IMG/VR virus record: IMGVR_UViG_3300029906_000160
Origin: a virus
Taxonomy: Duplodnaviria > Heunggongvirae > Uroviricota > Caudoviricetes
DNA: 64,000 nucleotides
Strand: one strand, 5' to 3'
Shown in pieces: positions 4,963 to 39,298 of the stretch. Numbering within the stretch: position 1 is the first letter of the stretch; every line of letters begins with the position of its first letter. The position numbers were made by a program, and so were the translations under genes. Below the pieces are notes generated by a model. It did not search any database. It was not told the DNA's origin and saw only the letters and a program-made list of their open reading frames with translations.

Positions 4963-5052
4963 GTCTTAGAGCAGGAGCTGAACGGGTCGAACGCTCACCT
5001 GAGGCTTTGGAGGCCCCCTTTACGGTTTTGAAGACCGCTGTGCTACCATTAC
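4963..5052 (-). tRNA. tRNA with anticodon UCA (reads UGA); tRNA-Trp-like backbone; atypical 25-nt variable region
   Basis: acceptor GGAGCUU/AGCUCC; D-arm UAGUGUAAUGGUAGCAC; anticodon arm GCGGU-CUUCAAA-ACCGU (E. coli tRNA-Trp has ..GGUCUCCAAAACCG..); T-arm GAGCG-UUCGACC-CGUUC; 90 nt. Confidence 0.6.
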
Positions 5053-5168
5053 ACTAAGCTCCTATTAAAATAAAGAACTCTCTATTTGCTTAGATTTATA
5101 ATCTCTCTAAATATTTGTTCTTTTAATTTCTAATACAAATATATAAAGAAATTTTTAATCTTACAAAT

Positions 5169-6430: not shown

Positions 6431-6437
6431 AATTTAA

Positions 6438-7118
6438 TTATTTATAATAAGCATTAAATGAACTTGCACTTATTTGTTCTATATGTGCGTTTTTTCTAAA
6501 TTCTTCAAGAGTTCTTGAATTACAGTAAGACATTGCTGAACGAAAATAACTAATAAAATTGTCACACCATCCAGCTAAAGTATATTTAATAGGAACAAGA
6601 GTTTCTATTCCTTCTGCTGTTTTTGTTGCTTCTCCACTTATTTCTGTTTGAGCTCTTTTTGTAGACATTCCATAATACTTACGTACTCTTTCGCCATTAT
6701 GATTAAATATAACTTTTCCACAAGCTTCTTCACTCATAGCAAATATCTTACCCAACATTACATAATCAGCACCAATTGCAAGAGCTTTGATTATTTGATC
6801 AAAATTAGAGAATCCTCCATCTGCAACTATTTTTGGAATAGATCTATAAGGACTGTAATAAATATATTTTTCTCCATCACAATTTTTTCGTTCTTTTCCA
6901 TTATACTCAGTTGAAACACTTACTGTATTCTTATGAAAAACTAATTTCTGAAGTAAAGAAACCATTGGATAATGAATACTCGAATTTGCCGAAGTAGTAC
7001 AATTGTGAACAACAAAATCATTAGCGATATATTGATGCTCTTTTTCAACTTCAATATCAAAAACCTCTGTAGATTGATACTTAATTTCTACAGAGGTTAT
7101 TTCTACAAAATTAATCAT
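6438..7118 (-). CDS. C-terminal split-intein half (IntC, 39 aa) fused to the C-extein of an IMPDH/GMP-reductase family enzyme
   Basis: N-term MINFVEITSVEIKYQSTEVFDIEVEKEHQYIANDFVVHN (intein blocks F/G ending HN) followed by CTTSAN (IMPDH catalytic-loop remainder); ADGGF..KALAIGADYVMLG TIM-barrel motifs. Confidence 0.8.
   Translation of the reverse strand: MINFVEITSVEIKYQSTEVFDIEVEKEHQYIANDFVVHNCTTSANSSIHYPMVSLLQKLVFHKNTVSVSTEYNGKERKNCDGEKYIYYSPYRSIPKIVADGGFSNFDQIIKALAIGADYVMLGKIFAMSEEACGKVIFNHNGERVRKYYGMSTKRAQTEISGEATKTAEGIETLVPIKYTLAGWCDNFISYFRSAMSYCNSRTLEEFRKNAHIEQISASSFNAYYK
7002..7118 (-). other. IntC split-intein segment
   Basis: blocks F and G; terminal Asn followed by +1 Cys. Confidence 0.7.
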
Positions 7119-8160
7119 ACATTAATTGTCTTATTTTATTTATTGTTTCTGGATTTTTAATATCATCTTTAGTTAAACGTAAAAATTTATATCCATTATC
7201 TTTAGCAAACTGTTCTTTTAATTGATCCCTTTCTTTTTCATCCTCTTTATGATATTTTCCTGTAGAATCATATTCGATTAAAACAGTTTTATTTATAAAG
7301 TAATCATAAATAACATATCCATCACTTAATTCAAACTTTTTTCCAAGTATAATTAAGTTTCCAATTTCAGGAAAATAAAATTTTAAAACTTGATAAAATT
7401 CAAATTCTTCATTAGAGTGAAGACCATAAGATAAATAAATATCTATTTCATCGCCATACAATCGTTTAAGATTTTTATAAACAGTTTCAGCAGATTTGGT
7501 TATTTTTTCATCATGTTTTTCGTTATAATATTTAACTAAAGAATGAATTGTATATTTTTGTGGATTTGCTTTAATCAAAAGATACATCCATGTATATGAA
7601 TTATTAGATTCTGTTTCGATAAAACCTTTACTCTCTACAACAAAATTATATCGATAAAAATCAGTTAATTCTGTGATTTCTTTTTCTGTACAAATTTCTA
7701 AAGCAATTCATACTTTTTTAAGAGTTCTTTTATCTATATTATATTGTTTTGCTACATCTATTAAAGGAGTTTCTTTATTAGAAAACATTTGAAAAGCTTC
7801 TGTAAAAGTTTTTTCATCATAACGATTCTTATACCATTGTTTTACATCAAAAGTATTCTTTAAAGATGGCTTTATTTTTTCTTTTATTTCTTGATTCGCT
7901 TGCTTAAGCATCCGCCCCATACAAGAATCTGTAGCATATTTATTAAATTCCCAACGCTTTCCTCCCGTACGTAAATGTAACGGATTTCCACAACCACAAG
8001 GGCATATAGGATGAACTCCGTTGTATCAAAATTTAACAATATAATCTTCTAATTCCATTTGATGATCTATTTTAATATGAGATCTCAATTTTGCTTTACA
8101 TGAACTTTCTTTTTCATATGTAAATTCTTTACCACAAATTTCGCATTTCAATGTTACCAT
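7111..8160 (-). CDS. free-standing homing endonuclease: N-terminal Zn-finger plus C-terminal Vsr/PD-(D/E)xK-like domain; 2 in-frame TGA read as Trp
   Basis: continuous 349-codon frame once TGA is sense (joins track ORFs 7111-7587 and 7708-7920 plus 7921-8160); CEICGKEF..CPCGCG; C-term VIYDYFINKTVLIEYDSTGKYH..DQLKEQFAKDNGYKFLRL. Confidence 0.65.
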
Positions 8161-8255
8161 ATTTTTAAAATTTTATAAGTTATACAATGTGCTATAGTTG
8201 TACCTCAACTACTAATACAAAAATAAGTATAAAATTTTAAAAATACAAATAAATG

Positions 8256-9047
8256 TTACACAATTTTATCCTCTACCAATAAATATTCAGAAGTTAAATT
8301 TTTTGCTTCAATATAAAAAGAATACTCAGATAAATTATTTTCTGTTACTTTATCTTTGTCTTTTTTATTTATAACAAGAAATTTATGATCTGGAGTACAT
8401 TTTATTTTATTATTTATCATTATTGTAGAATCGGTTGTCTTTTTAAAAGTAGAAACTACTTTTTGATTTCCAAAAATGGTTTTTACTTGTTCTCCAACAT
8501 CAATATCTTCGATATTCTTTTTCGTTCCATTTGCCATTGTAACTTTTGTTCCAGCAACAAAACAGCAACTTCCACCACCAATTCCACAACGAACATAGTC
8601 TATTCCTGCTCTAGCATATTCAAAATATGTATCTGGATTAGCTATATTACCCGCCATTATCTTAATCTCATCTCCGAACTTTTCTTTAGCTTGTTTACAG
8701 AGATTAAGAAGCCTCTTCATATGACCATTAGCTATATCTACACAAACATAGATAGTTTGAATTGGATGATAAAAATCAATCAATCTTTCAAATTCAGATA
8801 AAGATACAGCTATAAAAGTTTTATTAGATAAATCTAGTCTAGTTTCCCAATTAACTGACCTTGGAATAATAGTATTTATCTTATTATCTTGAAACATCTT
8901 CCAGTTATTTTCATCTATAACTGAGGTCATAGGCGCAGTAAATAATGGAAGCATACCATTATCCAAATAAGGATTACATTCACTTCTATGTTCTATTTCA
9001 GAAATGTCTGCTGGAACAAGACAAATGTCGTTAAATGAAAGTAACAT
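8256..9047 (-). CDS. N-extein of an IMPDH/GMP-reductase family enzyme (161 aa) fused to N-terminal split-intein half (IntN, 102 aa)
   Basis: ..YVRCGIGGGSC|CFVAGTKVTMANG (intein block A starting with Cys); block B CTPDHKF; ends with TAA. Confidence 0.8.
   Translation of the reverse strand: MLLSFNDICLVPADISEIEHRSECNPYLDNGMLPLFTAPMTSVIDENNWKMFQDNKINTIIPRSVNWETRLDLSNKTFIAVSLSEFERLIDFYHPIQTIYVCVDIANGHMKRLLNLCKQAKEKFGDEIKIMAGNIANPDTYFEYARAGIDYVRCGIGGGSCCFVAGTKVTMANGTKKNIEDIDVGEQVKTIFGNQKVVSTFKKTTDSTIMINNKIKCTPDHKFLVINKKDKDKVTENNLSEYSFYIEAKNLTSEYLLVEDKIV
8259..8564 (-). other. IntN split-intein segment
   Basis: blocks A (CFVAG) and B (TPDH) located in the last 102 codons. Confidence 0.7.
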
Positions 9048-9788
9048 TTTAAATAACTTTTCTAATTTATATTAATAAAAAATTTTGGATAATTTTATTA
9101 TGTATCTTCTTCATAATAAAACGACAAATATTGTAAAGCACGATGTATTCAATTGCATATATTATTTGTTCCAACTCTATAAGTGGATCTTGAATAAAAA
9201 TCTTTTGGATACGGAACACCTAGATAACGCACATCTTTTGTTTTTACTCCTATTTGAGAATTAACATATTCTTCCATTTCAGGAGTAAATCCATCTAATT
9301 CTATTTTAATTTTAAATGGACCTAATTCTTTATTTATTTCCACAAGTTAAAGATTTTATATTTTCTATATATACTCTAACAGAGTCATTAATTAAAAAAC
9401 AACCATATCTATCACTCCATTTAATAGAAGTAGTACGACGATCTCCAATTCTATATTTACGACCATCAAAAGTAATTATCTCTGCTATCATACACATATA
9501 AATTTTATTTTTTAACGTAAATAACCCTAACCAATTCTTTAATTGGAATTATAATAAATTCTGATAAATCATGAAATACTAATGTAATTAAAGTATCATT
9601 CTCTTCATATACCAGCCAATTCTTTTCTCCAATATAATAAAGAGTATCTTTAGTTACAATTCTATCTATTCTATAATTAGATTTATCAAAATTTGGTATA
9701 TCGTAAATCATAATAAAAAAATAAGCTCCCAGTTTATTTACTGAGAGCCTTGTGTATTAACTGTTTAATTCTTGTATAAATCTAATCA

Positions 9789-10358
9789 TTATATAACTTG
9801 CATATGAAGTCCCTTCATTATGTCAAGTGTTTTTTGATGCATTTCTGGATCATTAGATGCACAGCAATCACTATGTACTATAATTTCAGAACGAGTAAAC
9901 AAATTCTGAAAATTTAAAGCAACAGATAGAACACACATATTTGTTACAACTCCGCAGATATGGATTTCATATTCAGAATTTGGATCTAAACCAAATGGAC
10001 TTGCTAGTTTAAGACAATCATTTAAATTCCGAAAACCAAAAGCATCAACTTTAGCTATTTCACCAACCCGAACATTATCTACAAACTTTTTTAGTTCAGG
10101 AATTAGATTCCATCCTTCAGTTCCATATAAACAATGTGGAATTGGAAGATGTCGACCCTCTCTAGTTTGTGTGTATGTAGTATCACTATGTGTATCTAAA
10201 GTAAATATAACTGAAAGATTATCATCTACAAATTCATTTACTAGTTTAACAACATTAGGAACTATTGCTTTTGTATACTCATTACCAAGAACATTGTCGT
10301 TTATTAAAAAATCTTGCTGCATATCAACCACAACAAGAAATTTATTCTTTGTACTCAT
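9789..10358 (-). CDS. isochorismatase-family cysteine hydrolase (nicotinamidase PncA-like)
   Basis: VVVDMQQDF and catalytic-Cys motif CGVVTNMCV. Confidence 0.75.
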   Translation of the reverse strand: MSTKNKFLVVVDMQQDFLINDNVLGNEYTKAIVPNVVKLVNEFVDDNLSVIFTLDTHSDTTYTQTREGRHLPIPHCLYGTEGWNLIPELKKFVDNVRVGEIAKVDAFGFRNLNDCLKLASPFGLDPNSEYEIHICGVVTNMCVLSVALNFQNLFTRSEIIVHSDCCASNDPEMHQKTLDIMKGLHMQVI

Positions 10359-11265: not shown

Positions 11266-11831
11266 TTATTTTGTATATTTCTTTCGTTCTTTTCTTCCAT
11301 TACCTTTATTAGCACCTTTATACGTAGCAGTTAAAGAATGACAATTTGGACATAATAGTATTAAATTTTCTTCAGAATTATTTAAATAATTTCCATCTAT
11401 GTGTTCGACTTCTAATGGAATTTTATTAGTATATGGATTTGTTTCTCCTCACCCACATCTAGCACATTTATTATTATATTTTTTAAACAAATAACACTTT
11501 AAATAAGAACTAACTTGATACTCGCCTTTTAATCCTGTTTCTTTTCCCTCTTTTCAACGTTTTTCTCATTCCTTTTGTTCTCAATTTTGTTGACATTGGT
11601 GAGAACAAAATTTTAAGTGAGCTTTATGTAAATTCTGTCCACAATTAAGGCAAACGCCATAATCTTTTTCTTTTTGAGTTGTTAATAAAATATCTAATTT
11701 TATTGCTCATCTTTTTATAGTTCGTCAATTAACATTATATAGTCTTCCTATTTCTGCATAAGAAAGTTGTTGAACGTTAATTAAATTGTTTAATGTTTCT
11801 TTGTCAATCATTTTAAAAATCTACTGTAATA
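11266..11831 (-). CDS. HNH homing endonuclease with N-terminal HTH; 5 in-frame TGA read as Trp
   Basis: CARCGW..LEVEHIDGN..NLILLCPNCH; HTH LSYAEIGRLYNVNWRTIKRW; unreadable in the standard code. Confidence 0.75.
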
Positions 11832-12152
11832 ACCATTATACTAAAAAGGCAATAAATGTTACTAATACGTAGCCAACGGAGCATTTTATGGTTGCACAAC
11901 CTGGAGCAGAATACATAATTCCACACAGTACATGTTAAATAAGTATTATAAGTAACATAATGGCTTGCGGGAGTTGAAGGTAACGCTCCTCCGTACTCAC
12001 GTTAACAGCGTGAAGTTCTACTTTTGAACTAAACTCCCAACAATCTACTTTATCCTACATACGAAAAGTAGTAAAACGTATCTCCATACGATGAGATTCA
12101 TGAGCGACAGGGCTTCAAGATGCTACGATTCACTCGTCAGTGACTAATTATT

Positions 12153-12227
12153 GAGCGCCAGTGGGACTCGAACCCACGTAGAATGGCTTATGAGACCATG
12201 CTGGGACCATCTCCAGTCTACAGCGCT
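12153..12227 (-). tRNA. tRNA-Met/Ile2 (CAU)
   Basis: acceptor AGCGCUG/UGGCGCU; anticodon loop CUCAUAA; T-arm GUGGGUUCGAGUCCCAC. Confidence 0.6.
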
Positions 12228-12261
12228 ATATTGTATCGCATAAATGTTTATTTATAATATA

Positions 12262-12720
12262 TCAAAGAGTACCTTTACTCTTTATATTATATTTTTTCAT
12301 TAAATCTTTATAAGAAAGCCCAAGATGTTTATCGCTTCGAATTTGTTTTATTAATTCATTAGAATAAATTCTATTTGCTAACGCAGATTTCTTTATTCTT
12401 ACTTTTTCTGGAATATCAAACATATTATCAGAATTAGTTCCAATTTCAATATTTTCCTCTTTATTGTTTAAAGAATTTCCATCTAAATGTCTAATAACCA
12501 TATCTTTTTCATAAATCTTTTCTTTAAACTTTTTATATGCTTGAAATCTATGATGATATACCTTAATATTCTTTCCATTTAACTTAAAAGAAAAATATAA
12601 ATAAGGTTGTTTTCCTCTAGTTCCAACAATGTTGCCTTTTGGACTTGTAACAATTCCATCTTTAGAAATTACATAACCTTTATTTCAAGCTAATTCTTCA
12701 TAATGATTATAATTTACCAT
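12262..12720 (-). CDS. HNH (HNH_3-type) endonuclease; 1 internal TGA read as Trp; annotated stop is itself TGA
   Basis: YHHRF..VIRHLDGNSLNNKEENIEIGTNSDN; track ORF 12262-12501 extends upstream through a TGA to an ATG at 12720. Confidence 0.65.
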
Positions 12721-12741
12721 TTTTGTTATATTTTTATATTG

Positions 12742-12900
12742 TGACTCCTGTGGGACTTGAACCCGACGACCCCATCATTAATTTCAGACAAGTCTGGATA
12801 GTTGGGCACGATCCAACGACCTCCAGTTCCCAAAACTGGCGTTCTACCAACTGAACTACATCCAGAAAGTGATGTGCTCTACCAACTGAGCTAAGGAGTC
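12742..12900 (-). tRNA. tRNA-Lys (UUU)-like gene interrupted in its anticodon loop by about 85 nt that contain a complete tRNA-Pro
   Basis: 5' half GACUCCU-UA-GCUCAGUUGGUAGAGC-A-CAUCA-CUUU; 3' half UAA-UGAUG-..UUCAAGU..-AGGAGUC-A; perfect 7-bp acceptor and 5-bp anticodon stems between the halves. Confidence 0.5.
12793..12865 (-). tRNA. tRNA-Pro (UGG), nested inside the tRNA-Lys-like gene
   Basis: C1:G72 acceptor CUGGAUG/UAUCCAG; D-arm GUUCAGUUGGUAGAAC; anticodon arm CCAGU-UUUGGGA-ACUGG; T-stem GUUGG/CCAAC; 73 nt. Confidence 0.65.
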
Positions 12901-13009
12901 GCTCTTAAGATACTTATTTTAAACCTAACTTATCAATTAATGTAAATATAAACTTGTAAGTATCTTATTTTATGTTAATCTTCAGTATTATAAATTTCTC
13001 TAGTTACTT

Positions 13010-13081
13010 TATTGATGTTGGAATCGAACCAACGAACTCTGCGTGACTCGCAAATGTTAAAACCACTTAACTAATCAATTG
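13010..13081 (-). tRNA. tRNA-like, anticodon region GUC (Asp?) with non-canonical position 33
   Basis: D-arm UAGUUAAGUGGUUUUAAC; T-arm GUUGGUUCGAUUCCAAC; acceptor mismatch at 1:72. Confidence 0.45.
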
Positions 13082-13143
13082 ATTTTATAAGTAACTTAAA
13101 CTAAACCTATAAGTTTGAGTAAATTCAGGGACTTATAGGTACA

Positions 13144-13485
13144 CTAAATTTTTTCAATTATAATTTTAATATTTCCCCAACTTTTTGGAATCACATCTTT
13201 AAATTGAGATTCCCAAAGTAAAGATTGATTTGTAAAATAATAATTACCATAAATAGAAGAAATATAATGTTTTATTTGACTTATTTGCTTTTCAAATTCT
13301 TTATATTTTTTATTCTTCTTACTTATCTGGCATTGAGCTAATTCTAGATTATATATTTCTTCTAAACGAGGTTTGATATCATTTATATAATCAGAATATT
13401 CGATTAAATATTTATATTGAGATACTGTATATTTAAGTTTAGTATCATGAACATAAGTAATTTTATATTTACCTAAAGTTTTCAT
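13144..13485 (-). CDS. hypothetical protein
   Basis: ORF track. Confidence 0.45.
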   Translation of the reverse strand: MKTLGKYKITYVHDTKLKYTVSQYKYLIEYSDYINDIKPRLEEIYNLELAQCQISKKNKKYKEFEKQISQIKHYISSIYGNYYFTNQSLLWESQFKDVIPKSWGNIKIIIEKI

Positions 13486-13501
13486 ATTTAAATAAATTTA
13501 G

Positions 13502-13575
13502 TACTCGGTGGGAGATTCGAACTCACCGTGAAGGGAATGAAAATCCCTCATACTAACCAACTATATGAACCGAGC
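13502..13575 (-). tRNA. tRNA-Glu (UUC)
   Basis: anticodon arm AGGGA-UUUUCAU-UCCCU; T-loop UUCGAAU; acceptor GCUCGGU/ACCGAGU. Confidence 0.55.
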
Positions 13576-13576
13576 A

Positions 13577-13612
13577 AAAAAGAGGAGAGCTAGAACCCTC
13601 CTCGAACTAACA
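13577..13612 (-). terminator. putative rho-independent terminator (minus strand)
   Basis: minus-strand GAGGAG-(10 nt loop)-CUCCUC followed by UUUUUU. Confidence 0.4.
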
Positions 13613-13918
13613 AAGAAATGTTAGCGATTCGAAATGCTACTTATTTCAACGAGCTAATTTAAAAGATTAGAGTTTTAAAATGTTATTATAAGTAGCATAA
13701 TATAATTTTTTTTAAATTTAACCTTTTAATGTAACCTCTTTATTAATTGGATCTCATACAACAAATCAAAGATTTGTTTTTAGTTAACCATCCACTAACA
13801 TAATTAACTGCTCCTGCATGAGTTGAATCTATTGATAATTTTATTCTGTCTTCTATACTGCTCGTCCAGTCACAGTTATGAGAAATGGATTACTAACCGT
13901 AGCTCCATGAAAGTCATA

Positions 13919-14365
13919 TCAAGTACCAGCAGTCATCTGAATAGCACTAGCTGGTCTATCGTCCTGAAGTCTACCTGACATGCTATATGCGAATGAGGTA
14001 TTTATTGGTACTGTTCCTGTCACTCGTGTTATCTTAATCCCACTGATTGCTTTAGTCTCATGCCTATAGTCAAGATCAGGAGATCCATTAACCATATAAT
14101 TAACTGGATTAGTAGTAGATATCTGATATTGTACTTGCATTTGTCCATCATATCCTATTAATCCTTGGAATAGAATATAGCAGTAAATCCTTGCTGCTAT
14201 ATCAGCCTCCTGTACTAACTGATTATTACTATAAGTACCCTTTATAGTAAATTCACTAGCATTTTTAATATCTTGATACGTAGGACATTGAGAGTAAGTA
14301 TTAGGATAAGTTACCTTATATCCGAAATTATCATATAAATACTGATAAGTTGCAATTTTACCCAT
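13919..14365 (-). CDS. hypothetical protein
   Basis: ORF track. Confidence 0.45.
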   Translation of the reverse strand: MGKIATYQYLYDNFGYKVTYPNTYSQCPTYQDIKNASEFTIKGTYSNNQLVQEADIAARIYCYILFQGLIGYDGQMQVQYQISTTNPVNYMVNGSPDLDYRHETKAISGIKITRVTGTVPINTSFAYSMSGRLQDDRPASAIQMTAGT

Positions 14366-14510
14366 GATACACCTCCTCCCTTTCCTTAATTTGAGATTGA
14401 TTAAACTTTGTAAACATAATGATAATTAATTTAATTGTCAAACAATAATTGCTATTACTAGTTTACCGATTTCCTCATTATGTCAAGCAATTACGATAAA
14501 ACTATAATAG

Positions 14511-14585
14511 ATTGAACTCACAGTAGGATTCGAACCTACATCTTCCTATAATAATATAGGTGTTCTGTCATTAAACTACATGAGT
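14511..14585 (-). tRNA. tRNA-like element (T-arm UAGGUUCGAAUCCUA); identity unresolved (6-nt anticodon loop by hand)
   Basis: acceptor ACUCAUG/UGUGAGU with G:U pairs; canonical T-arm. Confidence 0.4.
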
Positions 14586-14690
14586 TAGTAAATTTCTAGT
14601 TACTAAATTATAGCAGAGTATTTAGTTATAGGATAATTCAGGAATAGTAGTATATAAGTTACTTACTTCTTGATTAGTTCTATTATCTAA

Positions 14691-15350
14691 TTATTTAATT
14701 AATACTTCATCGATTAAACCATAAGATTTTGCTTCTTCTGCATTAAACCAACAATCTCTATCTGCATTCTCTACAATTTGAGAATATATAATTCCTGTGT
14801 TCTTAGAAAGTATTTCATATAGAGTTTGTTTGTATTGTTTAATTTCTTCGTAAGCAATTTTTATATCTGATTCTTGAGTTCCTGGAGCAATTCCACCCAT
14901 AGGTTGATGAATCATTATCTTACTATGTGGTAATGCGAATCGTTTACCTTTAGTTCCACTAGATAATAAAACTGCTCCCATAGATGCTGCTAATCCAATT
15001 GCATAAGTTTCTACATTTGGAGATATATACTGCATCATATCATAAATAGCAAGTCCATCAACTATCGAACCTCCAGGACTATTTATAAATAATTTAATCT
15101 CAGTTTTATCATCCATTGTATTTAAATACAACAACTGAGAAGTAATAATATTAGCAACATCTGCGTCAATGTCTGTTCCAAGAAAGATAATTCTATCAGC
15201 CATCAATCTTGAAAATATATCCATAGTTGCTACATTATTTCGTCTTTCTTCTACAATAGTTGGACTTATAATATCATTAGTAAACTTTTGATAATCCCAC
15301 ATTTTATGAGATCCTACTCGCGAACTCAGAAACTTTTCGTAATCTTTCAT
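14691..15350 (-). CDS. clpP: ATP-dependent Clp protease proteolytic subunit ClpP
   Basis: catalytic-Ser region GLAASMGAVLL, His region MIHQPMGG; 219 aa; no TGA. Confidence 0.9.
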   Translation of the reverse strand: MKDYEKFLSSRVGSHKMWDYQKFTNDIISPTIVEERRNNVATMDIFSRLMADRIIFLGTDIDADVANIITSQLLYLNTMDDKTEIKLFINSPGGSIVDGLAIYDMMQYISPNVETYAIGLAASMGAVLLSSGTKGKRFALPHSKIMIHQPMGGIAPGTQESDIKIAYEEIKQYKQTLYEILSKNTGIIYSQIVENADRDCWFNAEEAKSYGLIDEVLIK

Positions 15351-15693
15351 TATATAAATATATTATTTTATCTTTTTTAACATCATAATATTCTGCATCA
15401 ACAGGATTGTAATGTCCCCAACATATAGTTACATCTGGAAACAAAGAATTAAATTCATTAAGTTCTTTACCTATAAATTCTTTAAATCCTGTATTATTTG
15501 CATGAATTTCATCAACATGAATTACAAACAAATTAATATCTAACTTATCGTAATAACATCTAAGTTTTATATCACGATATTTATTTGTAATTCTATTACA
15601 CAAATTCTTTATAGAAAATTCTAAAATTCTTCTAGCTTGAATTTCAGCCCAATCACGTATTTTATTTATTATTTTAAATATAAATTTTAGCAT
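15304..15693 (-). CDS. hypothetical protein
   Basis: ORF track; promoter-like motif 35 nt upstream. Confidence 0.45.
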   Translation of the reverse strand: MLKFIFKIINKIRDWAEIQARRILEFSIKNLCNRITNKYRDIKLRCYYDKLDINLFVIHVDEIHANNTGFKEFIGKELNEFNSLFPDVTICWGHYNPVDAEYYDVKKDKIIYLYNERLRKVSEFASRIS

Positions 15694-15744
15694 ATTTATA
15701 ATGATACTATTTGACTGAAGACTTATTAAATATTGTAAGTATCA

Positions 15745-16954
15745 GTCGTATATTTTATTTTATAAGCTTAATGTTATAATATTCACAGAGAGAATTTAAA
15801 ACATTTCTTTTAATGTTAAATATTTCAAATAGTTTCTGTTTTGTCTTATATTTACTTCAAGCTTCTAATAAGTCTTCTTTAGAAACTATAGGATTTCCAT
15901 TTTCATCTAATATAGACCTCAATTTTAATCATTTAGCGTTACATTCGCGAGAACAACAAACACTTTTTCTATCTTGAGGTTTATATTCTTTCCCACAAAC
16001 GATACAAATTCGTTTTGGAACAGGTTGTTTATTATTTAAACCTAACTCTGTTTTAGTAGATGGAAGATTATATTGTCTACATCATCTTCTAACAGTATTA
16101 TCTGTAACTCCAAATTGTTTAGCGATATTACGAAAACTTCTAGTTTGAATTGCTTCTTTTAATCATTCTTTTGTCGGATATTCTAAATTTGCGTTTTCAT
16201 TATTCTTTAATCTAGATTTTTGTAAAGTATCTAATCTAGATTTTGTACTACATTCTTTAGAACAAAAATCAGATGTACCAGAAAACTCTTTACCACAATA
16301 CTTACATTTCTTAATTTTGTGTTTTACTATAAGCTGATTTTCTTTCTTTATATTTTTACCACAATAATTATCTGTTATTGCATGACAATTTGGACACAAT
16401 AGTTGTAAATTTTCAATTCTATTATCAGTATTAATTCCATTAATATGATGGACTTCTAATGGAATTTGTTGTCCTTCTCATTCTGTTTTATTACATTTTT
16501 CACATTTTCATTCTTTTAATCCAAATTCCACTAATCTAATTTTTAATTTAGATTTTTGATAATCTGAATTTTCTTTAAATATATCTTCTTTAGTATATTT
16601 CTTTCTAACTTTTTCTTTTGTATTATCTATACAAAAATGAGAAGTATCAATATTATATTTTTCTATAATTTTGTTAATACGAGAATAATTTGTATTTGTC
16701 GCTCTAATTCCTAAATTTTTACAAACATCGTTTATATTCTTACATTTTGGAATTAAATCAACAATAATTTGTTCATATTCTTGTTTAGCTTTTTCTCGTT
16801 CGATTATCTTTTCTCTATCTTTTTGTCATTTAGTACCAAGATAATAAGCTACTAATGATTTTGTAGAATTACATTTTGATGCAATTTGAGTATAACTTAA
16901 TCCTTGATTATGTAATTCTTTAAATAATTTATATTTTTCTTCAGCTTCAGTCAT
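15745..16954 (-). CDS. HNH homing endonuclease with multiple HTH domains (about 402 aa); 7 in-frame TGA read as Trp
   Basis: LEVHHINGINTDNRIENLQLLCPNCH; C-terminal HTH ..NTVRRWCRQYNL with W=TGA; track shows only a 78-aa fragment (16163-16399). Confidence 0.75.
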
Positions 16955-17013
16955 TTTATAAAGAAAAATTAAAAATTAATAAAATCTTTTATATTTTAAT
17001 CTAAACAATATTC

Positions 17014-17088
17014 GTAGATCTGGCTGGGCACGATCCAGCAACCTTCTGAGTCAAAGTCAGATGTTCTAAACCAATTGAACTACAGATC
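17014..17088 (-). tRNA. tRNA-Gln (UUG)
   Basis: acceptor AGAUCUG/CAGAUCU; anticodon arm UCUGA-CUUUGAC-UCAGA; T-arm GCUGG-AUCGUGC-CCAGC. Confidence 0.65.
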
Positions 17089-17240
17089 TATTACCATATT
17101 TTTAGTTTGATTTGAATTCCAAACTAAAAATATTATTAAAAATGAAACTTAATTAATTTTGTAAAGTACAACCAAAGAACTAAGAAATTATTAATTATAT
17201 TATATTGTAAGTTTCATTTTATATATTTCAACGTTACTAT

Positions 17241-17313
17241 TACATGATATTGGAATCGAACCAATTACATTTTGTGCCTTAAGCAAATGCTCTACCTAAT
17301 GAGCTAATCATAT
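17241..17313 (-). tRNA. tRNA-like (anticodon loop region UUAAGGC; Leu?)
   Basis: acceptor AUAUGAU/AUCAUGU; canonical D-arm UAGCUCAUUAGGUAGAGCA; T-arm UUGGUUCGAUUCCAA. Confidence 0.5.
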
Positions 17314-17345
17314 TAGTTTTATAAGTAACGTATATTATCAATTAA

Positions 17346-17465
17346 AATGCTACTATTGTACGTGCTCTAACCATCTGAGCTATACGCAAAATGCGCAACC
17401 GGACTTGAACCGATGACCACGAGATTACGAATCTAAAACTTTGATTTTGTAAGTAGCAATTATTT
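17346..17465 (-). other. tRNA-derived modules in non-canonical order (T-arm AUCGGUUCAAGUCCGGU upstream of D-arm UAGCUCAGAUGGUUAGAGCA)
   Basis: hand alignment; no complete cloverleaf. Confidence 0.35.
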
Positions 17466-17800
17466 TATTCTGCCTTAATTATCTTTTTATCTTCATCAAG
17501 TTTATAGGGAGCTTTTTCCTCTTTATTAAATGTAGAAGCTGTTTCCATAAACTGATCAAGAAAATAACTTTTTAAATATCCGAAATGTGGATGAGCTTTA
17601 TATTTATTACAAAGCCAAGAGTAAACATTATCGTAATTTTGATTTACAGATCTTTTAAGTTTTCTATCTATTATGCGATAATCCTTATTCAGATCTTTAT
17701 CAACAGGAGCAACATTATAATATTCTGTAAAGTCTTTAGCCTCCTGCTTATGAGAATCTCGCATTGATTCTCTCATCGGCATATTATCAAAATCCTGCAT
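17465..17800 (-). CDS. hypothetical protein
   Basis: ORF track. Confidence 0.45.
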   Translation of the reverse strand: MQDFDNMPMRESMRDSHKQEAKDFTEYYNVAPVDKDLNKDYRIIDRKLKRSVNQNYDNVYSWLCNKYKAHPHFGYLKSYFLDQFMETASTFNKEEKAPYKLDEDKKIIKAE

Positions 17801-17884
17801 AATTAAATAAAATTAAAATGTTACTTTATAATAAAACTTGCCCGCAACAAGTCACGTAAACCATTCCGTCTTTCCAGAACATAT

Positions 17885-18235
17885 TCTAGAAGTTGGATTC
17901 GAACCAACAATTATTTAATAGTTTTATAAGTAACATAATTAATAAAAGTCTATTGACACTTTATACGTTGCTCTACTAATGAGCTTTATTGATAATTCAA
18001 TAAAAGGATTTGCACCTTTAACCTACGGGTTACAAGCCAGATTTTGTTTTATAAGTGTCAAATTATAAGTCTAATGATACATTTATACTTATGCTCTACC
18101 ACTGAGCTAATTAATCAATTTTTTGGCGATTAATACTGGATTTGAACCAGTTACCTTAAGTTCCCCACAATAGTTTTATATGTATCATATTTGGGAGTTA
18201 AAAGATATTCGAAATCTTTCCTTTTCAGTCACAGT
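17885..18235 (-). other. array of tRNA modules (3 canonical D-arms, 4 T-arms) interleaved with promoter-like motifs; order and acceptor complementarity suggest permuted or fragmented tRNA genes
   Basis: minus strand: T-arm(ACUGG-UUCAAAU-CCAGU)+AUUAAUC..GAUUAAU+D-arm(UAGCUCAGUGGUAGAGC); repeated pattern. Confidence 0.35.
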
Positions 18236-18291: not shown

Positions 18292-18630
18292 TTATTCTTC
18301 CAAATTATTTTCAAAATTTATTTTTCCAACACAACTAACAAAAGTTGTATGAAATTTATCATCTTGAAAAATATAATAATTGTCCAAATAAGAATACGCA
18401 ACACCAACAAGTGTTTGAAGTCGTCCTTCTATTTTAGATTTTTCTCCAAAATGTTTTGCTGCTTCTTTTAGACATTCTGGAAATTCTTCTCCATCTAACA
18501 TTGTATCATATAATACAATATTTGGATCATAAACAGATATTTCTTCTCCTTCATCAAAAGGATTATAAAGAGAAGAGGGTCTATTTCTAAACCACTCTTC
18601 TCTTCGTAATATGTATTCAGGATCTCTCAT
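18292..18630 (-). CDS. hypothetical protein
   Basis: ORF track. Confidence 0.45.
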   Translation of the reverse strand: MRDPEYILRREEWFRNRPSSLYNPFDEGEEISVYDPNIVLYDTMLDGEEFPECLKEAAKHFGEKSKIEGRLQTLVGVAYSYLDNYYIFQDDKFHTTFVSCVGKINFENNLEE

Positions 18631-20498
18631 TATAGAACATTCTGTCTTACAAGGTCATAGCGATTTGATCTATAGAGACTCTGAAGTGGAGTATATACAT
18701 CAAATATATCCATATCCTTGAAGTTAGTAAGAATCTGCTCGATCTGCTCTGGATTACCTGGAACATACATAAAATTGTCTATTCCAGAAAACCTATTCAT
18801 ATCTACTCGATTCCATTTATCTATAACAATAGCGATGATAAATGGCTTATATCCGAAATACTTCTCACAACGGCGCATAAAATCATTCATACAAGCCTCT
18901 GGTGATCCCATTGATGTATTAAAGTCACCATCCGATATGATAGTCCATACAGGATAGTTCCTAAGAGCATCTAAAAGATCTGGATTGACCTCTGCCATAT
19001 TATGAAATCCTTCTGGAATTGCTGAAACATCAGTCCAACCTCCTCTATACTTGCATTCCATGAAATTAGCAATATTCAGATAATTATCATAGAAACTCTT
19101 TGTTGGATCTACAAATGCATGAGGAGCACAAGAGACATAACCATTATTTCTACGAGCAAAAATCTGATTTGGAGCAGTATTACGAGCCTTTACATCAATA
19201 TACTGATACAAGACTGAATCTGCACCAAACAATCCAAGCATATTTCGACCAGTATCATCTGGATTCTTAACAAGACATACAGAAGCCATAAACTTAGCAA
19301 AGTTAAATGGAGCGCCTTGCATAGAACCAGAATCATCAACAATTACGAGACTATTATATGGCAAATTTACTTTACCTACAAAAGACTCCAACTTCAGTTT
19401 ATCTACATTTCCATTTAATATGTCCTGATAGATAGACTTAAATGTTGATGCACCAGTAGTTACTTTAGCTTGCTTTTTAACTTCCTTAAGCTTTTCGAGA
19501 TCTTCAGTTGTGGCTTCTCCCTGTCTTACTTTCTCCTCAAGAACTCTCTGTTGAGCCTGAGCTTCCTCTTTCTGAGATTCCCACTCTGCATACCACTGAC
19601 GAAGATTAGGCCACTTAAACGTTCCATTCTCTTCGGGGAACTGTACTCTATTTCTAATTCTAAAACGGGCTCCTGCAGGCTGCTTATTAAGCCATTCAAT
19701 GAATTCATCGTGAGTGAATTCATTTATCTTACCTGTTGCAAAGAGTACAGCTTCATTTTCGCCATTATAATCCTTTCTCCACGATCTATAACCTCGAAAG
19801 TCAGAATAATTACCTTTATAGATGTAATCCCAACCCATCAAATCGCTTAATTCCTTCAAGAACTCAGCTTTAGCTTTCATGGCTCTAAGAGTTTCTGGGA
19901 GCATCTTCTGATGTTTAGATCTCTTACCAAGTCTCGGAAGTGTGAGGAACTTTGCAATAAGCTGCTTATTAAATGGATTGGAACCATTAATCACTTTATA
20001 GAAATACTCAGCAAGAATAGTTCTATAAGTTGGATTAGAGAGCATTGTATAAGTCTCAAGAACAGTTCCAGCTCTGTTTGTCTTTACTCTATTACGAAGC
20101 AGAGTATCAAAACAGTTATACTCATTAAACAGACCTGCAAACAAAAACTTCTTAAACTGTTCAAGATTCTTAGAAAGCAGCCAGTTAACAAATATAAAGA
20201 AGCTCTCACGACTTGACATTCCTCCAGAGTCAATCTTCTTTTTACCAAAGATATTATGCTGTCTATTGGTCACATCACCTATAGAAAAACAAAGAGAATA
20301 GAACATCTTTACTTTTTCTGGATCTTTAGATACTTCACGCCATGCTGCGTCAAGCTGATTTGTAGTTATATGATCATTATCCTGAAAAAGCTCAAGACAC
20401 TTCTTACATCCATAAAACGGATTCTCGTTTTTCTTATTAAATTCTACTTGTACCATAACTAAATTAAATTCAGTCTTTTTAAATATTCTTTTTCGCAT
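18630..20498 (-). CDS. von Willebrand factor A (vWA) domain protein, 622 aa
   Basis: MIDAS motif LVIVDDSGSMQG; about 12 Trp all TGG; no TGA. Confidence 0.65.
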   Translation of the reverse strand: MRKRIFKKTEFNLVMVQVEFNKKNENPFYGCKKCLELFQDNDHITTNQLDAAWREVSKDPEKVKMFYSLCFSIGDVTNRQHNIFGKKKIDSGGMSSRESFFIFVNWLLSKNLEQFKKFLFAGLFNEYNCFDTLLRNRVKTNRAGTVLETYTMLSNPTYRTILAEYFYKVINGSNPFNKQLIAKFLTLPRLGKRSKHQKMLPETLRAMKAKAEFLKELSDLMGWDYIYKGNYSDFRGYRSWRKDYNGENEAVLFATGKINEFTHDEFIEWLNKQPAGARFRIRNRVQFPEENGTFKWPNLRQWYAEWESQKEEAQAQQRVLEEKVRQGEATTEDLEKLKEVKKQAKVTTGASTFKSIYQDILNGNVDKLKLESFVGKVNLPYNSLVIVDDSGSMQGAPFNFAKFMASVCLVKNPDDTGRNMLGLFGADSVLYQYIDVKARNTAPNQIFARRNNGYVSCAPHAFVDPTKSFYDNYLNIANFMECKYRGGWTDVSAIPEGFHNMAEVNPDLLDALRNYPVWTIISDGDFNTSMGSPEACMNDFMRRCEKYFGYKPFIIAIVIDKWNRVDMNRFSGIDNFMYVPGNPEQIEQILTNFKDMDIFDVYTPLQSLYRSNRYDLVRQNVL

Positions 20499-22309: not shown

Positions 22310-23200
22310 TTAACTAATTTCTTCTATTTCGTGAGACACGGTATCTAAATTAAGAAAAAATTGAACTTTTTCATATTTTCTAGGCAATCATATATTATCT
22401 TTTTCTGCATAAATTTTTTCAACAAAAAATTTTATTTCTTGAGAATTACAATTACGAATATAAGAACTACATCCAGTTTTTGTTTGTCTTTGAATAACTT
22501 TTGTTTTTAAACCAAAGTATTCTAAAAGCTTTTGCATTCCAGTTCAATCCTGATTATATGAACTAGTAATACTAAATGTTGTACTAAAAGTAGTTTTCTT
22601 AGACTGAATATAATAACATCCATCACCGTCTATATAACCTCTCAAAAAGTAAGATCAATATTCTTTTGGAACATAGTCTATAATTTTTTGATGTGATTCT
22701 ATGGATTTACTATATTTGCCTAATTGCTGTAATTGTTCTGCAATATCAATTCGATTTGTATGAATTTCAATTTGAGGTTTTCTGTTTTTTCTTATTTGAT
22801 GATAAATATTAAATTGCCCTAACTTTTGAAATATAGGAAATACTTTATCTCCGTCTTCTTGAACAATTTTAATAGATAAACCTCCTTTTTTAGAAATATA
22901 TCCATCTGCTCAAAAATATCCTAAAAAATATGCTAATTCTTTTGGAAACTTTGTTTTAGAAAAATCAATAGTAAAATCAAAATGTTTGTCTTGCTCACCA
23001 TTGAATGTTAAACTCTTTATTTCTTCCTCTGTGACATTAATTGGATGTTTGTTCGTTCCAATTTTTAAACGAGACCCCATTCCGACAATACTAGCAACAG
23101 TTCTATCTAATTTTTCTCCACAAACGATTGCTCCAAATTTTTTAAGATTCTGTTTTAAAAATTCAATTTCATCTTTAGTTCAGGATTTATTTTGTTTCAT
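22310..23200 (-). CDS. LAGLIDADG homing endonuclease (two motifs), free-standing; 5 in-frame TGA read as Trp
   Basis: LAYFLGYFWADGYIS and WSYFLRGYIDGDGCYY; 297-codon continuous frame only with TGA as sense. Confidence 0.75.
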
Positions 23201-23278
23201 ATTTGTTAAAACTTAAAATTAAAAAATCTCTTATTTTTATTAACAAATATATGACAAAATTTTTAAATTTCCAAATAT

Positions 23279-23737
23279 TTATAACTCTGAAACTTGATGT
23301 GATACTGTATCGATAACAAATGCGCGTCTACAATCTAAATCTACAAAATTTTCTAAAATTATGGGATTTTCCTTCGTTTGGGAATGTCCGAAAACCTGGA
23401 ATAAAGTATCGTCACAATCAGATTCACGAACATCATGCCAAATTGGAGAACCAGTAGAATACCAACCACCTCTTTCCCAACTCATTTCCCAAAATATTTC
23501 AGGAGATGCTTTATATATCTCATTTAGATAAATATCTGCATCAGTTTCTGGAAGTTTTAGATCATGACGCTTTAACCAATCTTTAGATACTCCTGCATGC
23601 GTGAACAGAGTATCATCAATTTGTTTAGCTATCTGAAAAAACTCTATATCTTCAGTATATATTTGATGTAATTCATCCCACCTAAAAGAATCTATTCTAG
23701 ATGCATTATAACTCGAATAAATATAGTGCCAATCCGT
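23279..23737 (-). CDS. C-terminal half of a PPP-family Ser/Thr phosphatase (lambda-PPase/ApaH-like)
   Basis: DTLFTHAGVS, VFGHSQTK motifs; frame opens right after a TAA with no ATG; 1 TGA read as Trp upstream of the first Met. Confidence 0.6.
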   Translation of the reverse strand, partial: TDWHYIYSSYNASRIDSFRWDELHQIYTEDIEFFQIAKQIDDTLFTHAGVSKDWLKRHDLKLPETDADIYLNEIYKASPEIFWEMSWERGGWYSTGSPIWHDVRESDCDDTLFQVFGHSQTKENPIILENFVDLDCRRAFVIDTVSHQVSEL

Positions 23738-23829
23738 TTATGTTCAATGTAAATCGTTAGTTTACACCCGTTATTAACTGCTTATACTTCATTTTCGTAT
23801 AAGACCTGACTATATCTTCACCTTCGACA

Positions 23830-24702
23830 TTACTCGTTAAGGGCGGAGCATTCCGAAGCACTTGCTTCTACCACCATTTCAGGAATAGTCGATGAACCTT
23901 CAACCTCATTAGAGGAAGCTTGGCTGCTGATTACCATCTCAGGCGTCCCAGCAATTAACTCCGTTTCACTTAATGATTTCTCATTAAGAGCACAAATTAT
24001 TTCTTCAAATTTTTTCTTTTTTCTTGGAAGGAAAACTGTTGCGTCTTTATATATAAAATCATAAAACTTTTTAATATTTTGTCTACCAGAATATTCCATT
24101 GTACAAATATCGGAATTAATTCTACGTGAGTTTAACTTAGTTTGTTTAAATCCTAGATTATCAATTAAATATTGTTGATAAGCTGAAATAAAAGAAACGT
24201 ATCCGGTAATATTAAATTTAACATTATGAATAATACGTTCTCTACGTCCCTCTTTTCGTGTGGGATCGTTTACTCACATTTTCTTTCTTTTTCCATTTCA
24301 AATACAACCGTCTCCATCAAAATAACCTCGCATAAAGTGAGAAATTAAATCTTCTGGGACTTGTCATTCTGTTGGTCAAGACAAATTTTTAGTTTTACGT
24401 TTAACACATCCTTGTTTTTCTAATGATTCTGCAATATGTTTTCCGTATACATAAAATCGAATTTGATCCTCATGATTTTCATTTGTATCTTTTCTAATAA
24501 GTAATGGATAATCCGATTTCATTTCTTCTTTTAATTTATCAACAACACATCTATCTTCAATTTGAAGTGATATTGATATCTCTCCAGTAGTTGGATGTTC
24601 ATGATTACATCCATCTGCATACAATAATCCAAGAAAATATGCCTTTTCTGGCGTATTTATCTCATCAAAATAAGTTTCATCATAATTATGTTTTCTTTTC
24701 AT
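23830..24702 (-). CDS. LAGLIDADG homing endonuclease between the two phosphatase halves; several in-frame TGA read as Trp
   Basis: KAYFLGLLYADGC and HFMRGYFDGDGCIW; joins track ORFs 24376-24702 and 23830-24099. Confidence 0.7.
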
Positions 24703-24765
24703 ATATTTATAAATTTAATTGATTTAACTTTACAAATATACAAATATTTATTATGATTTCCAAAT

Positions 24766-25014
24766 TTATTTTGATGATTTCCAAAAATTTGATAATTTAT
24801 GATTACCTAGTAAAAGAGTGACTCTATCAGGGTTTTGATCCTTAAAATTTAGTATATCTAAAAGATATTGTATAGAATTAGGATATTCATCTTTCCATTC
24901 GTATGGATAAGGATCAAGATAATCTCCTAAAAATATAATTGAATCATTCCACTTTTTTACAGCATCTTTCCAAAACTCACGAAGATGTAAATCGGGAATT
25001 ATTAGCGCTTTCAT
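24766..25014 (-). CDS. N-terminal half of a PPP-family Ser/Thr phosphatase
   Basis: IIPDLHL, FLGDYLDPYP, LLLGNHK (GDxHG / GDxxDRG / GNHE motifs). Confidence 0.7.
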   Translation of the reverse strand: MKALIIPDLHLREFWKDAVKKWNDSIIFLGDYLDPYPYEWKDEYPNSIQYLLDILNFKDQNPDRVTLLLGNHKLSNFWKSSK

Positions 25015-32383: not shown

Positions 32384-32804
32384 TATTTTTAGATTTAATT
32401 GTGTTAATCAACTTAAAAGTCCATGAGAAAAAGATAATTGCCAATACAATGGCAAGAACGCCAGCAAGATTTGCAATACTGGATGGAATTGAAAGCAAAG
32501 ATCCAATCCCTGTAAGAGCCGCCATTAAAGCAGCAATCCACAGAATGTATAAACAAAATTTAACCATTTGGAATTATTTTATATGTTGTCGTTGTTATTT
32601 CTTCTTGAATTATATTATAATGTTCAAAGATAACTTTGTCTTTAATGGTATCTCGCCAAGCAATAGTTACAAAAATGCTAATAATAAACATAAGAACTGC
32701 CATTATATAAGATATAATACGAGTTCCTTTATCATCGTTATCTGAAAGACCTATAATCCATCCACATAACATACAACCGATAAATCCAAATAAAATTATA
32801 CCAA

Positions 32805-33158
32805 TCATGATATATCTTTATTTAAAAAGTTTCCAATTTTGGCGAAAAAACTTATTACTTTGTTTTCTTTTGGAATCAGAAATTCGTAATGTAAAGAGTC
32901 TGGGCAAGAACTTGCTAGAAACATTATACTTAAAAAGACATTAGCTACTGGAATCCATAAAAATAAAAATCCAACAACAATATACCAAATTTTAATTGGA
33001 ATCTTTTTTCTGTGTTTTGGATTTTCTTTAGCTAGTTCTATACTTGGAAATACAGAATATCCATTAGCTAGAGCCTCATATTTACATGAAGCAATACAAT
33101 ATGCTAGAATAAATAATAGAAGGGATATAATCCAAAATATCCAATAAACCATTGCCAT
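32805..33158 (-). CDS. membrane protein (part of the 31323-33158 cluster of small TM proteins)
   Basis: ORF track; hydrophobic. Confidence 0.45.
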   Translation of the reverse strand: MAMVYWIFWIISLLLFILAYCIASCKYEALANGYSVFPSIELAKENPKHRKKIPIKIWYIVVGFLFLWIPVANVFLSIMFLASSCPDSLHYEFLIPKENKVISFFAKIGNFLNKDIS

Positions 33159-34412: not shown

Positions 34413-34430
34413 AATTGAAAAGTTTTAATT

Positions 34431-37408: not shown

Positions 37409-37427
37409 TCCAGCTCCCTCTTTCTTG

Positions 37428-39189: not shown

Positions 39190-39298
39190 AATTTTGTTAT
39201 TTTATAATTTGTGTAGGGTAATGACATTAGTCTTGGTACACATATTATAAAAAAATATCCCATATGCGGATATACCACACATGGGATATTTGGAAGTG

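Follow-up and report, generated by a model that had tools for sequence, protein, structure and literature searches.

In the TGA-recoded Agate phages described by Borges et al. (bioRxiv 10.1101/2021.08.26.457843), TGA is preferred by an endonuclease whose gene lies within a group I intron of an early gene, and it was proposed that the in-frame stops block this endonuclease until late. In this study we analyzed a stretch of 64,000 nucleotides (the window) from a virus of the Caudoviricetes, IMG/VR record IMGVR_UViG_3300029906_000160, in which eight endonuclease genes of four families (three HNH, three LAGLIDADG, one GIY-YIG and one Vsr-like/DUF559 by Pfam) all use TGA as a sense codon. The window resembles the Agate case in having an intron endonuclease that prefers TGA, a low GC content, few TGA codons as stops and a suppressor tRNA. 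However, the Agate endonuclease was one of three significant gene families, whereas here eight genes in four families are concerned, with PDDEXK_5 as a fifth family in relatives. The Agate case, reportedly published later in Nature Microbiology (2022), corresponds in type to one of our eight genes, the LAGLIDADG open reading frame (ORF) at 23830-24702, which lies in a group I intron of a gene of the standard-code block and prefers TGA. Beyond that case we find intron, split-intein and free-standing contexts as well as TAG in relatives, and we examined the neutral codon expectation. A suppression-gated endonuclease is already precedented; what our analysis adds is breadth, repetition across genomes and for both recoded stops, and the neutral expectation.

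Three other described systems bear on this locus. In crAss-like phages of the Zeta group, Yutin et al. (2021, PMC7886860) found TGA in the exons as well as in the intron ORFs of the PolB gene. Features shared with this group (PMC7886860, PMC12386605) are genomes of 145-192 kb, many introns and inteins, tRNA arrays, switching between TGA, TAG and standard coding at short phylogenetic distance, and recoding mostly in late genes. Those papers, unlike the present analysis, contain no contrast of endonuclease genes with their early neighbours. In phage T4, I-TevI, I-TevII, I-TevIII and segB, together with mobE of phage Aeh1, are endonucleases restricted to late times (Edgell, Gibb and Belfort 2010, PMC2988022), and ribosomes that enter the core of the td intron impair its splicing (PMC2988022). 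The likeness lies in ORFs that sit in early or middle transcripts and stay untranslated until late, and in ribosomes being kept from the intron core. The mechanisms are unrelated: T4 uses hairpins that hide the ribosome-binding site, late promoters and autorepression, whereas here termination at UGA until a suppressor tRNA is available is proposed. Finally, Dassa et al. (2009, PMC2677866) described a phage IMPDH gene split by inteins with a Vsr-like endonuclease ORF in between, which is the source of the IMPDH-1 split intein. Their paper says nothing on TGA or the genetic code; in our window the corresponding endonuclease has two TGAs, whereas both intein-extein ORFs are TGG-only.

The window has a GC content of about 30% and densely packed genes. 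ORFs were called with TAA and TAG as sole stops, and their stop-codon counts are in this respect not independent evidence. With TGA read as sense a compact map of 100 selected ORFs emerges, with few and short gaps, and the genes fall into two classes: one encodes tryptophan (Trp) by TGG only, the other almost only by TGA (Table 1). A preliminary description of the window had claimed that all eight endonuclease genes carry multiple in-frame TGA codons and that they appear as fragments in an ORF list made under the standard code. Both observations were confirmed: with TGA as sense every gene is a single ORF with at least two TGA codons, and the standard-code list shows fragments only. The loci had been placed correctly, with ends that were off by 10-36 nt; the end at 12262 given for one gene is a TGA codon, and the next TAG lies at 12226. 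This second TGA of the HNH_3 gene (12262-12264) could be a real stop instead. The only in-frame stops in the endonuclease ORFs are TGA; there is no TAA, no TAG and no frameshift. The catalytic domains reach the curated Pfam cut-off in seven of the eight genes. The remaining one, the LAGLIDADG gene at 61023-61922, scores 21.8 against a cut-off of 22.5 and is 29% identical to the LAGLIDADG ORF at 23830-24702 (E=7e-20). For the Vsr-like gene, with TGAs at 8026-8028 and 7708-7710, the DUF559 match has E=1.7e-5 and 25.1 bits against a cut-off of 20.6. The count of TGA against TGG for each gene, a check suggested at the outset, is included in Table 1.

Taken together, the endonuclease genes have 33 TGA and 4 TGG codons, compared with 5 TGA and 105 TGG in the minus-strand block 161-34412 outside the endonucleases (48 ORFs, Fisher p=3.6e-23). 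The other ORFs of the three TGA-using blocks have 59 TGA and 10 TGG and do not differ from the endonucleases (p=0.77). Hence the earlier statement that TGA is found in the endonucleases and never in their neighbours needs to be qualified. It applies to the six genes in the TGG-only block, where the neighbours have few TGAs, not none, and it fails for the GIY-YIG gene and the LAGLIDADG gene at 61023-61922, as the surrounding lysis and packaging genes use TGA too. TGA use is universal among the endonucleases and not exclusive to them. For codon pairs that differ in the final purine (Lys, Glu, Gln, Leu and Arg) the A-ending share in the endonucleases is 0.88, and the TGA share of their Trp codons is 0.89. 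In the two plus-strand late blocks 83-90% of such codons end in A and 89-96% of Trp codons are TGA. The early block, in contrast, is 75% A-ending and yet only 5% of its Trp codons are TGA. Since the TGA share of the endonucleases equals their own third-position bias towards A, the selected feature is TGA avoidance in the early genes and not TGA enrichment in the endonucleases. It had been implied that endonucleases form a special class; the special class are the early genes, and the endonucleases show the default state of genes without this constraint. Most simply read, early genes have to be translatable before UGA suppression sets in, a demand that does not bear on endonucleases.

The five TGAs in non-endonuclease ORFs of the early block lie near the ORF end in four cases, and the fifth is found in a 59-codon ORF, 17 codons before its end. 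Two of the five are probably upstream of the true start, and the remaining ones could truly act as stops early on, with a short extension behind them. As a true stop TGA is rare: at most about three early ORFs might end at TGA with a short extension. In three minus-strand ORFs of the standard-code block (32796-33158, 13853-14365 and 9098-9277) a TGA stands near the 3' end, with TAA or TAG following 2, 21 and 16 codons further on. These TGAs may still act as stops early, with short C-terminal extensions being made after suppression starts.

That TGA in the endonucleases stands for Trp had been proposed from the plausibility of the positions, and alignments of the HNH, LAGLIDADG and GIY-YIG proteins bear this out, as the homolog columns hold Trp; the opposite outcome, homologs with no Trp at these positions, was not what we found. 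In the HNH gene at 11266-11811 TGA codons 86 and 121 align with TGG-coded Trp in homologs of two more distant relatives (L003 and L005). Among 22 homologs of the HNH gene at 15755-16954, W159 never varies and W291 is conserved to at least 90%, and in the LAGLIDADG gene at 22310-23200 W97 and W219 are invariant among 20 homologs, with NCBI and JGI proteins included. TGA codon 83 of the GIY-YIG gene corresponds in the alignment to the Trp in FWIKEL, a motif of I-TevI. A homolog of HNH 15755-16954 in L021 has four TGG and no TGA, and there TGA is the true stop of neighbouring genes; among the phages with TGG-using homologs a real TGA stop was shown for L021 and not for L003, to which we assign no code. 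Codons that are TGA in one genome and TGG in another are found in the large terminase gene (TerL), compared with its ortholog in L001, and among five orthologs of HNH 15755-16954. (L001 and L002 are loci of IMGVR_UViG_3300029904_000001, and L018 is the ENA contig NODE_107.) Four of these orthologs keep six to seven TGA codons, with one TGG at W291. Over 68-87% identity the HNH orthologs have kept their full length and their TGA positions.

A Trp-type UGA-suppressor tRNA is encoded in the window (Table 1). It has A1-U72, G5-C68 and G73, which are listed as bacterial Trp identity elements (PMC9976931). Its variable region folds into an extra 5-bp hairpin with the loop CUCCAAA. The gene was also compared with the E. 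coli tRNA-Trp sequence. ARAGORN labels it as a selenocysteine tRNA, a candidate that we rejected because of the 7-bp acceptor stem, the 4-bp D stem, the Trp-type identity elements and an apparent lack of similarity to selC. An exact search with the anticodon stem-loop returned 31 viral loci, and a tRNA of this type is present in at least 15 of them, the largest contig of the family having 230 kb. When 13 members are aligned (loci listed in Table 1), the extra helix has 5-6 bp, with compensatory changes at four of six pairs, and the 7-nt loop is always CUCCAAA or GUCCAAA. CUCCAAA is the anticodon loop of the ordinary tRNA-Trp(CCA). We tentatively suggest, while thinking it rather doubtful, that the extra arm might be a decoy anticodon arm that shows the CCA identity element to the host TrpRS, so that the UCA tRNA would still be charged with Trp. 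Another possibility is that it might be a conserved remnant of an anticodon-arm duplication with a different role. Our literature search found no description of such an extra arm or of a decoy-arm mechanism of tRNA identity.

The contrast between endonucleases and neighbours is repeated in five other TGA-recoded genomes. TGA:TGG counts for endonucleases and neighbours are 10:0 and 3:73 in L018 (p=8e-11), 5:1 and 11:45 in L025 (p=0.003), 14:1 and 6:28 in L057, where a PD-(D/E)XK endonuclease is included (p=7e-7), 7:1 and 0:23 in L058 (p=3e-6), and 6:0 and 5:19 in L059 (p=8e-4). Relatives switch among TGA, TAG and standard coding, and three of them, which have either an amber-suppressor tRNA or an endonuclease ORF that the standard code would interrupt, form an apparently TAG-using set. 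The ratio of TAG to Gln codons, pooled over these three, is 7:37 for the endonucleases compared with 5:253 for the rest (p=4e-4). One of them, L005, carries a tRNA-CUA and has an HNH gene with two TAGs and a PDDEXK_5 gene with one (the two genes lie at 15834-16280 and 17257-18051); L024 has two LAGLIDADG genes (6431-7315 and 8001-8849) with two and one TAG. The larger neighbour genes in the TAG-using loci have almost no TAG.

The endonuclease genes are mobile. One lies in a group I intron, one in a split intein, one in an intervening sequence of TerL, and five are free-standing. Inserts are absent from L001/L002 and/or L018 in seven of the eight cases; around the two small HNH genes in the tRNA array (10.8-18.3 kb) the regions are too rearranged for empty sites to be defined. 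The GIY-YIG gene is absent from L001. The insert with the LAGLIDADG gene at 22310-23200 (22321-23277) is absent from L018 and gave no group I intron match in a targeted Rfam scan. For the HNH gene at 15755-16954, window positions 15695-17151 are 90% identical at the nucleotide level to L018 9804-11260, and the flanks on the ClpP side about 75%, which suggests that this gene may have spread recently by lateral transfer between related phages; the ORF at 15304-15693 next to it lies just upstream of ClpP. L018 in turn has a different LAGLIDADG gene (3 TGA, 0 TGG) that splits the homolog of window gene 18630-20498.

Three of the insertion sites deserve closer description. The group I intron in the metallophosphatase gene was missed by the whole-window Rfam search at both thresholds and was seen only in a targeted scan of 1.6 kb. 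The phosphatase exons (24799-25014 and 23282-23734) have no TGA and seven TGG; in alignments they correspond to the phosphatases of L002 and L018, which have no interruption. The four TGAs of the intron ORF lie at 24274-24378, 5' of the ribozyme core, and the ORF runs 179 nt into the core. The IMPDH-like gene (6438-9047) appears to be a 'fractured gene', with a split intein and a free-standing endonuclease; the intein ends (C...HN/C) can be read directly, and trans-splicing is predicted. Its insert of about 1.7 kb, Vsr-like gene included, is absent from the uninterrupted IMPDH of L002 (335 aa) and L018 (365 aa) by tblastn. TerL is interrupted twice. The second intervening sequence holds the LAGLIDADG gene at 61023-61922, and its ORF part is absent from L001, which has an ORF-less insert at this site (about 9764-10000). 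The first intervening sequence (60308-60558, plus strand) has no ORF and is absent from L001; a stretch of 33 nt near its 3' end (60521-60553) is 94% identical to L001 9954-9986. Neither TerL insert matched a group I or group II intron in Rfam, the targeted scan included.

How could these observations be explained? We consider it probable that the window belongs to a recoded phage in which early genes avoid TGA, genes without this constraint drift to it, and endonucleases are gated until suppression. The phage would most likely infect a host with the standard code and supply its own Trp-type tRNA(UCA); we infer the code of the host from the TGA avoidance in the early block and from the crAss-like similarity of TerL. 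Auxiliary and early genes of the 0.1-34.4 kb block would be under strong selection against TGA, being translated before the suppressor works. Genes free of this constraint, namely those for lysis, packaging and tail and all eight endonuclease genes, would drift towards the codon ending in A, as fast as the genome's preference for A over G at third positions dictates. In every endonuclease ORF the first UGA is found between codon 6 and codon 109, ahead of the catalytic motif, and the release factor of the host would end translation there as long as charged tRNA(UCA) is scarce. Full-length endonuclease would then be made only late, even where the gene is embedded in an early transcript, in a group I intron or in a split intein. 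In the intron ORF (23830-24702) ribosomes would halt at the UGAs, with about 270-370 nt left before the ribozyme core. As the UGAs lie upstream of the core, early ribosomes should not reach it, and splicing of the phosphatase mRNA should be protected. The preliminary description had offered two readings, translation only once UGA suppression is active or shared ancestry with a donor that uses genetic code 4. The first fits the tRNA(UCA), the conserved Trp positions, the early first TGA and the intron unit written in two codes, from which we infer the timing; the second found no support, as discussed below.

Several observations weigh against this explanation. 'Early' and 'late' are assignments made solely by the function of the genes and by strand block. 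The gene of the suppressor tRNA itself lies inside the block called early. The tail-fibre-like genes at 45364-47805 and 47871-49856 (both on the minus strand), which are presumably late, use mostly TGG, with one in-frame TGA each (codons 289 and 49), and are the exception on a structural, lysis and packaging side whose endolysin, terminase and peptidase genes are rich in TGA. Within the standard-code block ORF 13853-14365 of the tRNA-array region has a TGA:TGG count of 1:0 and no endonuclease signature. Other non-endonuclease ORFs with TGA are L002 13983-14678 (3:1) and L057 7740-8429 (2:1) and 8670-9281, and in L025 the ligase and Thy1 genes carry TGA. The Vsr-like gene is mixed and retains three TGGs. 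Finally, Lera, a TGA-recoded crAss-like phage of the Zeta group, has three endonuclease ORFs that are listed without a suppressed stop (PMC12386605, Table S1). The rule that endonucleases are recoded is hence not universal. The recoding of Lera is considered recent by its authors (PMC12386605), and endonucleases without TGA fit a slow drift after recent recoding.

Two side observations touch on these exceptions. ORF 13853-14365 and L002 13983-14678 represent one ORF without known function in the region of the tRNA array, and L057 7740-8429 is a putative counterpart. The single TGA in each tail-fibre-like gene joins what would be two ORFs under the standard code; it could be a single UGA gate, or, in 45364-47805, it could alternatively give a suppression-dependent fusion of two products.

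The strongest alternative to drift under a suppression gate is positive selection, in which TGA would be favoured in endonucleases as a device for timing or dosage and the gate would be an adaptation, not a by-product. The phage would gain protection of splicing and fewer early DNA breaks, and the endonuclease might gain coincidence with replication and recombination. It is in line with this idea that all eight genes have at least two TGAs with the first always before the catalytic motif, and that the intron ORF overlaps the ribozyme core with all its TGAs upstream of it. One intron endonuclease family was significantly TGA-preferring in Borges et al., and T4 confines its endonucleases to late times by other means. 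The five orthologs of HNH 15755-16954 have 34 TGA and 1 TGG, compared with about 4 TGG expected at 0.88. However, this excess is weak and the orthologs are not independent; our own binomial estimate is p about 0.07. A TGA share that equals the A-ending share leaves no excess to explain, and both the Lera endonucleases and the TGGs of the Vsr-like gene fit poorly. On balance we regard positive selection as unlikely, though worth keeping in mind. Recoding might also act as a general containment of selfish endonucleases, in TGA and TAG codes alike, a reading to which we give even less weight than to the decoy arm of the tRNA.

A host that itself reads UGA as Trp (code 4) appears very improbable to us. 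The TGG-only early block would then need another cause, for example recent acquisition from standard-code genomes or an expression-linked codon bias. Infection of recoded hosts is indeed known for some recoded phages (Borges et al.). Against such a host, the phage has its own tRNA(UCA), and the 48 ORFs that avoid TGA are functionally diverse and keep their synteny in several relatives. TGA, TAG and standard coding alternate among the relatives, as in Zeta crAss-like phages, and TerL is nearest to crAss-like, Flavobacterium and Cellulophaga phages. Bacteroidota hosts of such phages use the standard code.

It is hardly credible, either, that the endonuclease genes were imported from code-4 organisms or phages, for example of mollicutes, and kept the codon usage of the donor. 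They are clearly mobile and more AT-rich than their neighbours (GC 0.259 vs 0.314, GC3 0.111 vs 0.184), which would be in line with such an origin. However, the Trp columns in question are encoded by TGG in other phages that have homologs of HNH 11266-11811 and HNH 15755-16954, with TGA as a real stop beside one of these homologs. The closest homologs are found on 143-176 kb contigs of the same phage group, and the homolog sets gathered here give no sign that the endonucleases nest within code-4 lineages or their phages. The codon bias is that of this genome's own late genes, in their TGA share as in their third positions. The endonucleases of L005 and L024 carry in-frame TAG and not TGA, and since endonucleases are recoded with TAG in TAG-using relatives, a code-4 donor is ruled out as the explanation. 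Decay, finally, in which the TGAs would be nonsense mutations in dying genes late in the homing cycle, deserves next to no credence: endonuclease genes often degenerate after fixation and these ORFs are fragmented under the standard code, but they have no other stop or frameshift, their TGAs stand on Trp columns, several of which never vary, with almost no TGG the proteins would lack Trp if TGA did not encode it, the orthologs are full-length with the same TGA positions, and terminase and endolysin use TGA too. A pseudogene reading was rejected on the invariant Trp columns and the conserved orthologs.

Table 1. Features of the window discussed in the text; TGA:TGG gives the number of in-frame codons of each kind
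Feature	Position	Strand	TGA:TGG	Evidence and context
TGG-only gene class	161-34412	-		GroEL, two AAA ATPases, ADP-ribosylglycohydrolase, IMPDH-like gene, ClpP, metallophosphatase, tRNAs
Trp-type UGA-suppressor tRNA, anticodon UCA	4971-5063	-		ARAGORN; Rfam tRNA 52.4 bits; 92 nt
C-terminal intein half (...FVVHN) and C-terminal part of IMPDH (CTTSANS)	6438-7118	-	TGG only	phrog_9582
Vsr-like (DUF559) endonuclease	7111-8160	-	2:3	Free-standing between the split-intein halves of the IMPDH-like gene
N-terminal part of IMPDH and N-terminal intein half (...GGGSC/CFVAGTKV)	8256-9047	-	TGG only	phrog_9582
HNH endonuclease	11266-11811	-	6:0	Pfam HNH; free-standing in the tRNA-Thr/tRNA-Asn gap of the tRNA array
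HNH_3 endonuclease	12226-12720	-	2:0	Pfam HNH_3 E=4.7e-6; between tRNA-Pro and tRNA-Met
HNH + HTH endonuclease	15755-16954	-	7:0	Pfam; between tRNA-Gln (17014-17089) and ORF 15304-15693
LAGLIDADG endonuclease	22310-23200	-	5:0	Pfam LAGLIDADG_3 E=4.7e-15; free-standing in the metallophosphatase/AAA ATPase gap
Group I intron splitting the early metallophosphatase gene	23735-24798	-		Rfam Intron_gpI 69.5 bits, E=3.8e-17; core 23786-24008
LAGLIDADG ORF in the group I intron	23830-24702	-	4:0	
TGA-class block	41.3-45.3 kb	+		M15-type peptidase and papain-like peptidase
TGA-class lysis cassette	53.0-54.8 kb			Includes endolysin phrog_894
Endolysin (M15 peptidase)	53025-53441	-	3:1	phrog_894 E=5e-32; late gene written with TGA
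GIY-YIG endonuclease	53824-54567	-	3:0	Pfam GIY-YIG E=5e-9; free-standing in the lysis cassette
TGA-class block	55.3-63.6 kb	+		Exonuclease and large terminase (TerL) in three pieces
Large terminase gene (TerL)	59575-63261	+	10:0 (ORF pieces)	phrog_6681; pieces 59575-60307, 60559-60978 and about 62085-63261
Second TerL intervening sequence	60979-62118 (bounds approximate)	+		Holds LAGLIDADG 61023-61922
LAGLIDADG ORF in the second TerL insert	61023-61922	+	4:1	
Loci of the tRNA(UCA) family in other genomes				L033, L035, L037-L039, L041, L042, L044, L045, L049, L052, L053, L056

As to the identity of the phage, TerL shares 26-29% identity with crAss-like, Flavobacterium and Cellulophaga phages and 42% with the unannotated human-gut record MT835470, and close relatives are found on contigs of 172.9 and 176.9 kb. 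By its sequence the window is part of a TGA-to-Trp recoded phage with a crAss-like TerL. Its profile would fit the Zeta group of crAss-like phages, a lead to be set beside the TerL identity of about 28% to classified crAss-like phages. A megablast search of 45364-52394 against GenBank found no near-identical phage genome.

Further features were noted in passing. A tmRNA-like gene (34430-34753, minus strand) was called by ARAGORN as a tmRNA with a tag peptide and scores 44 bits (E=3e-14) against a gathering score of 47 in Rfam; a phage tmRNA may be relevant where a phage manipulates termination. A tRNA-like gene at 14514-14585 (minus strand) has 49 bits to the Rfam tRNA family, gets no anticodon from ARAGORN and apparently has an anticodon loop of 6 nt (AUUAUU). 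Two matches to YrlA (Y RNA-like) in the tRNA array (17361-17421 and 18056-18177, minus strand) stay below the gathering score of 69 with 38.9 and 27.2 bits and may be further tRNA-like RNAs. The region of about 37400-41300 has a GC content of 0.39-0.43 and an A-ending share of 0.44 (elsewhere 0.75-0.90), with short minus-strand ORFs that have no PHROG match, and may be a foreign island.

In conclusion, we characterized a recoded phage locus in which every endonuclease gene, like the terminase and lysis genes, falls into fragments under the standard code, a point of direct relevance for annotation. The tRNA with an anticodon-like extra arm is of possible interest for orthogonal translation systems that use Trp and UGA. 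The density of the recoded codon can be used as a readout of which genes need to be translated before the code is switched. Exons and intron ORF of the phosphatase gene, written in two codes within one transcript, offer a natural test of ribosome exclusion from a ribozyme core outside T4. The single case known from Agate phages is extended to a general pattern that covers five endonuclease families, three insertion contexts and both recoded stop codons.

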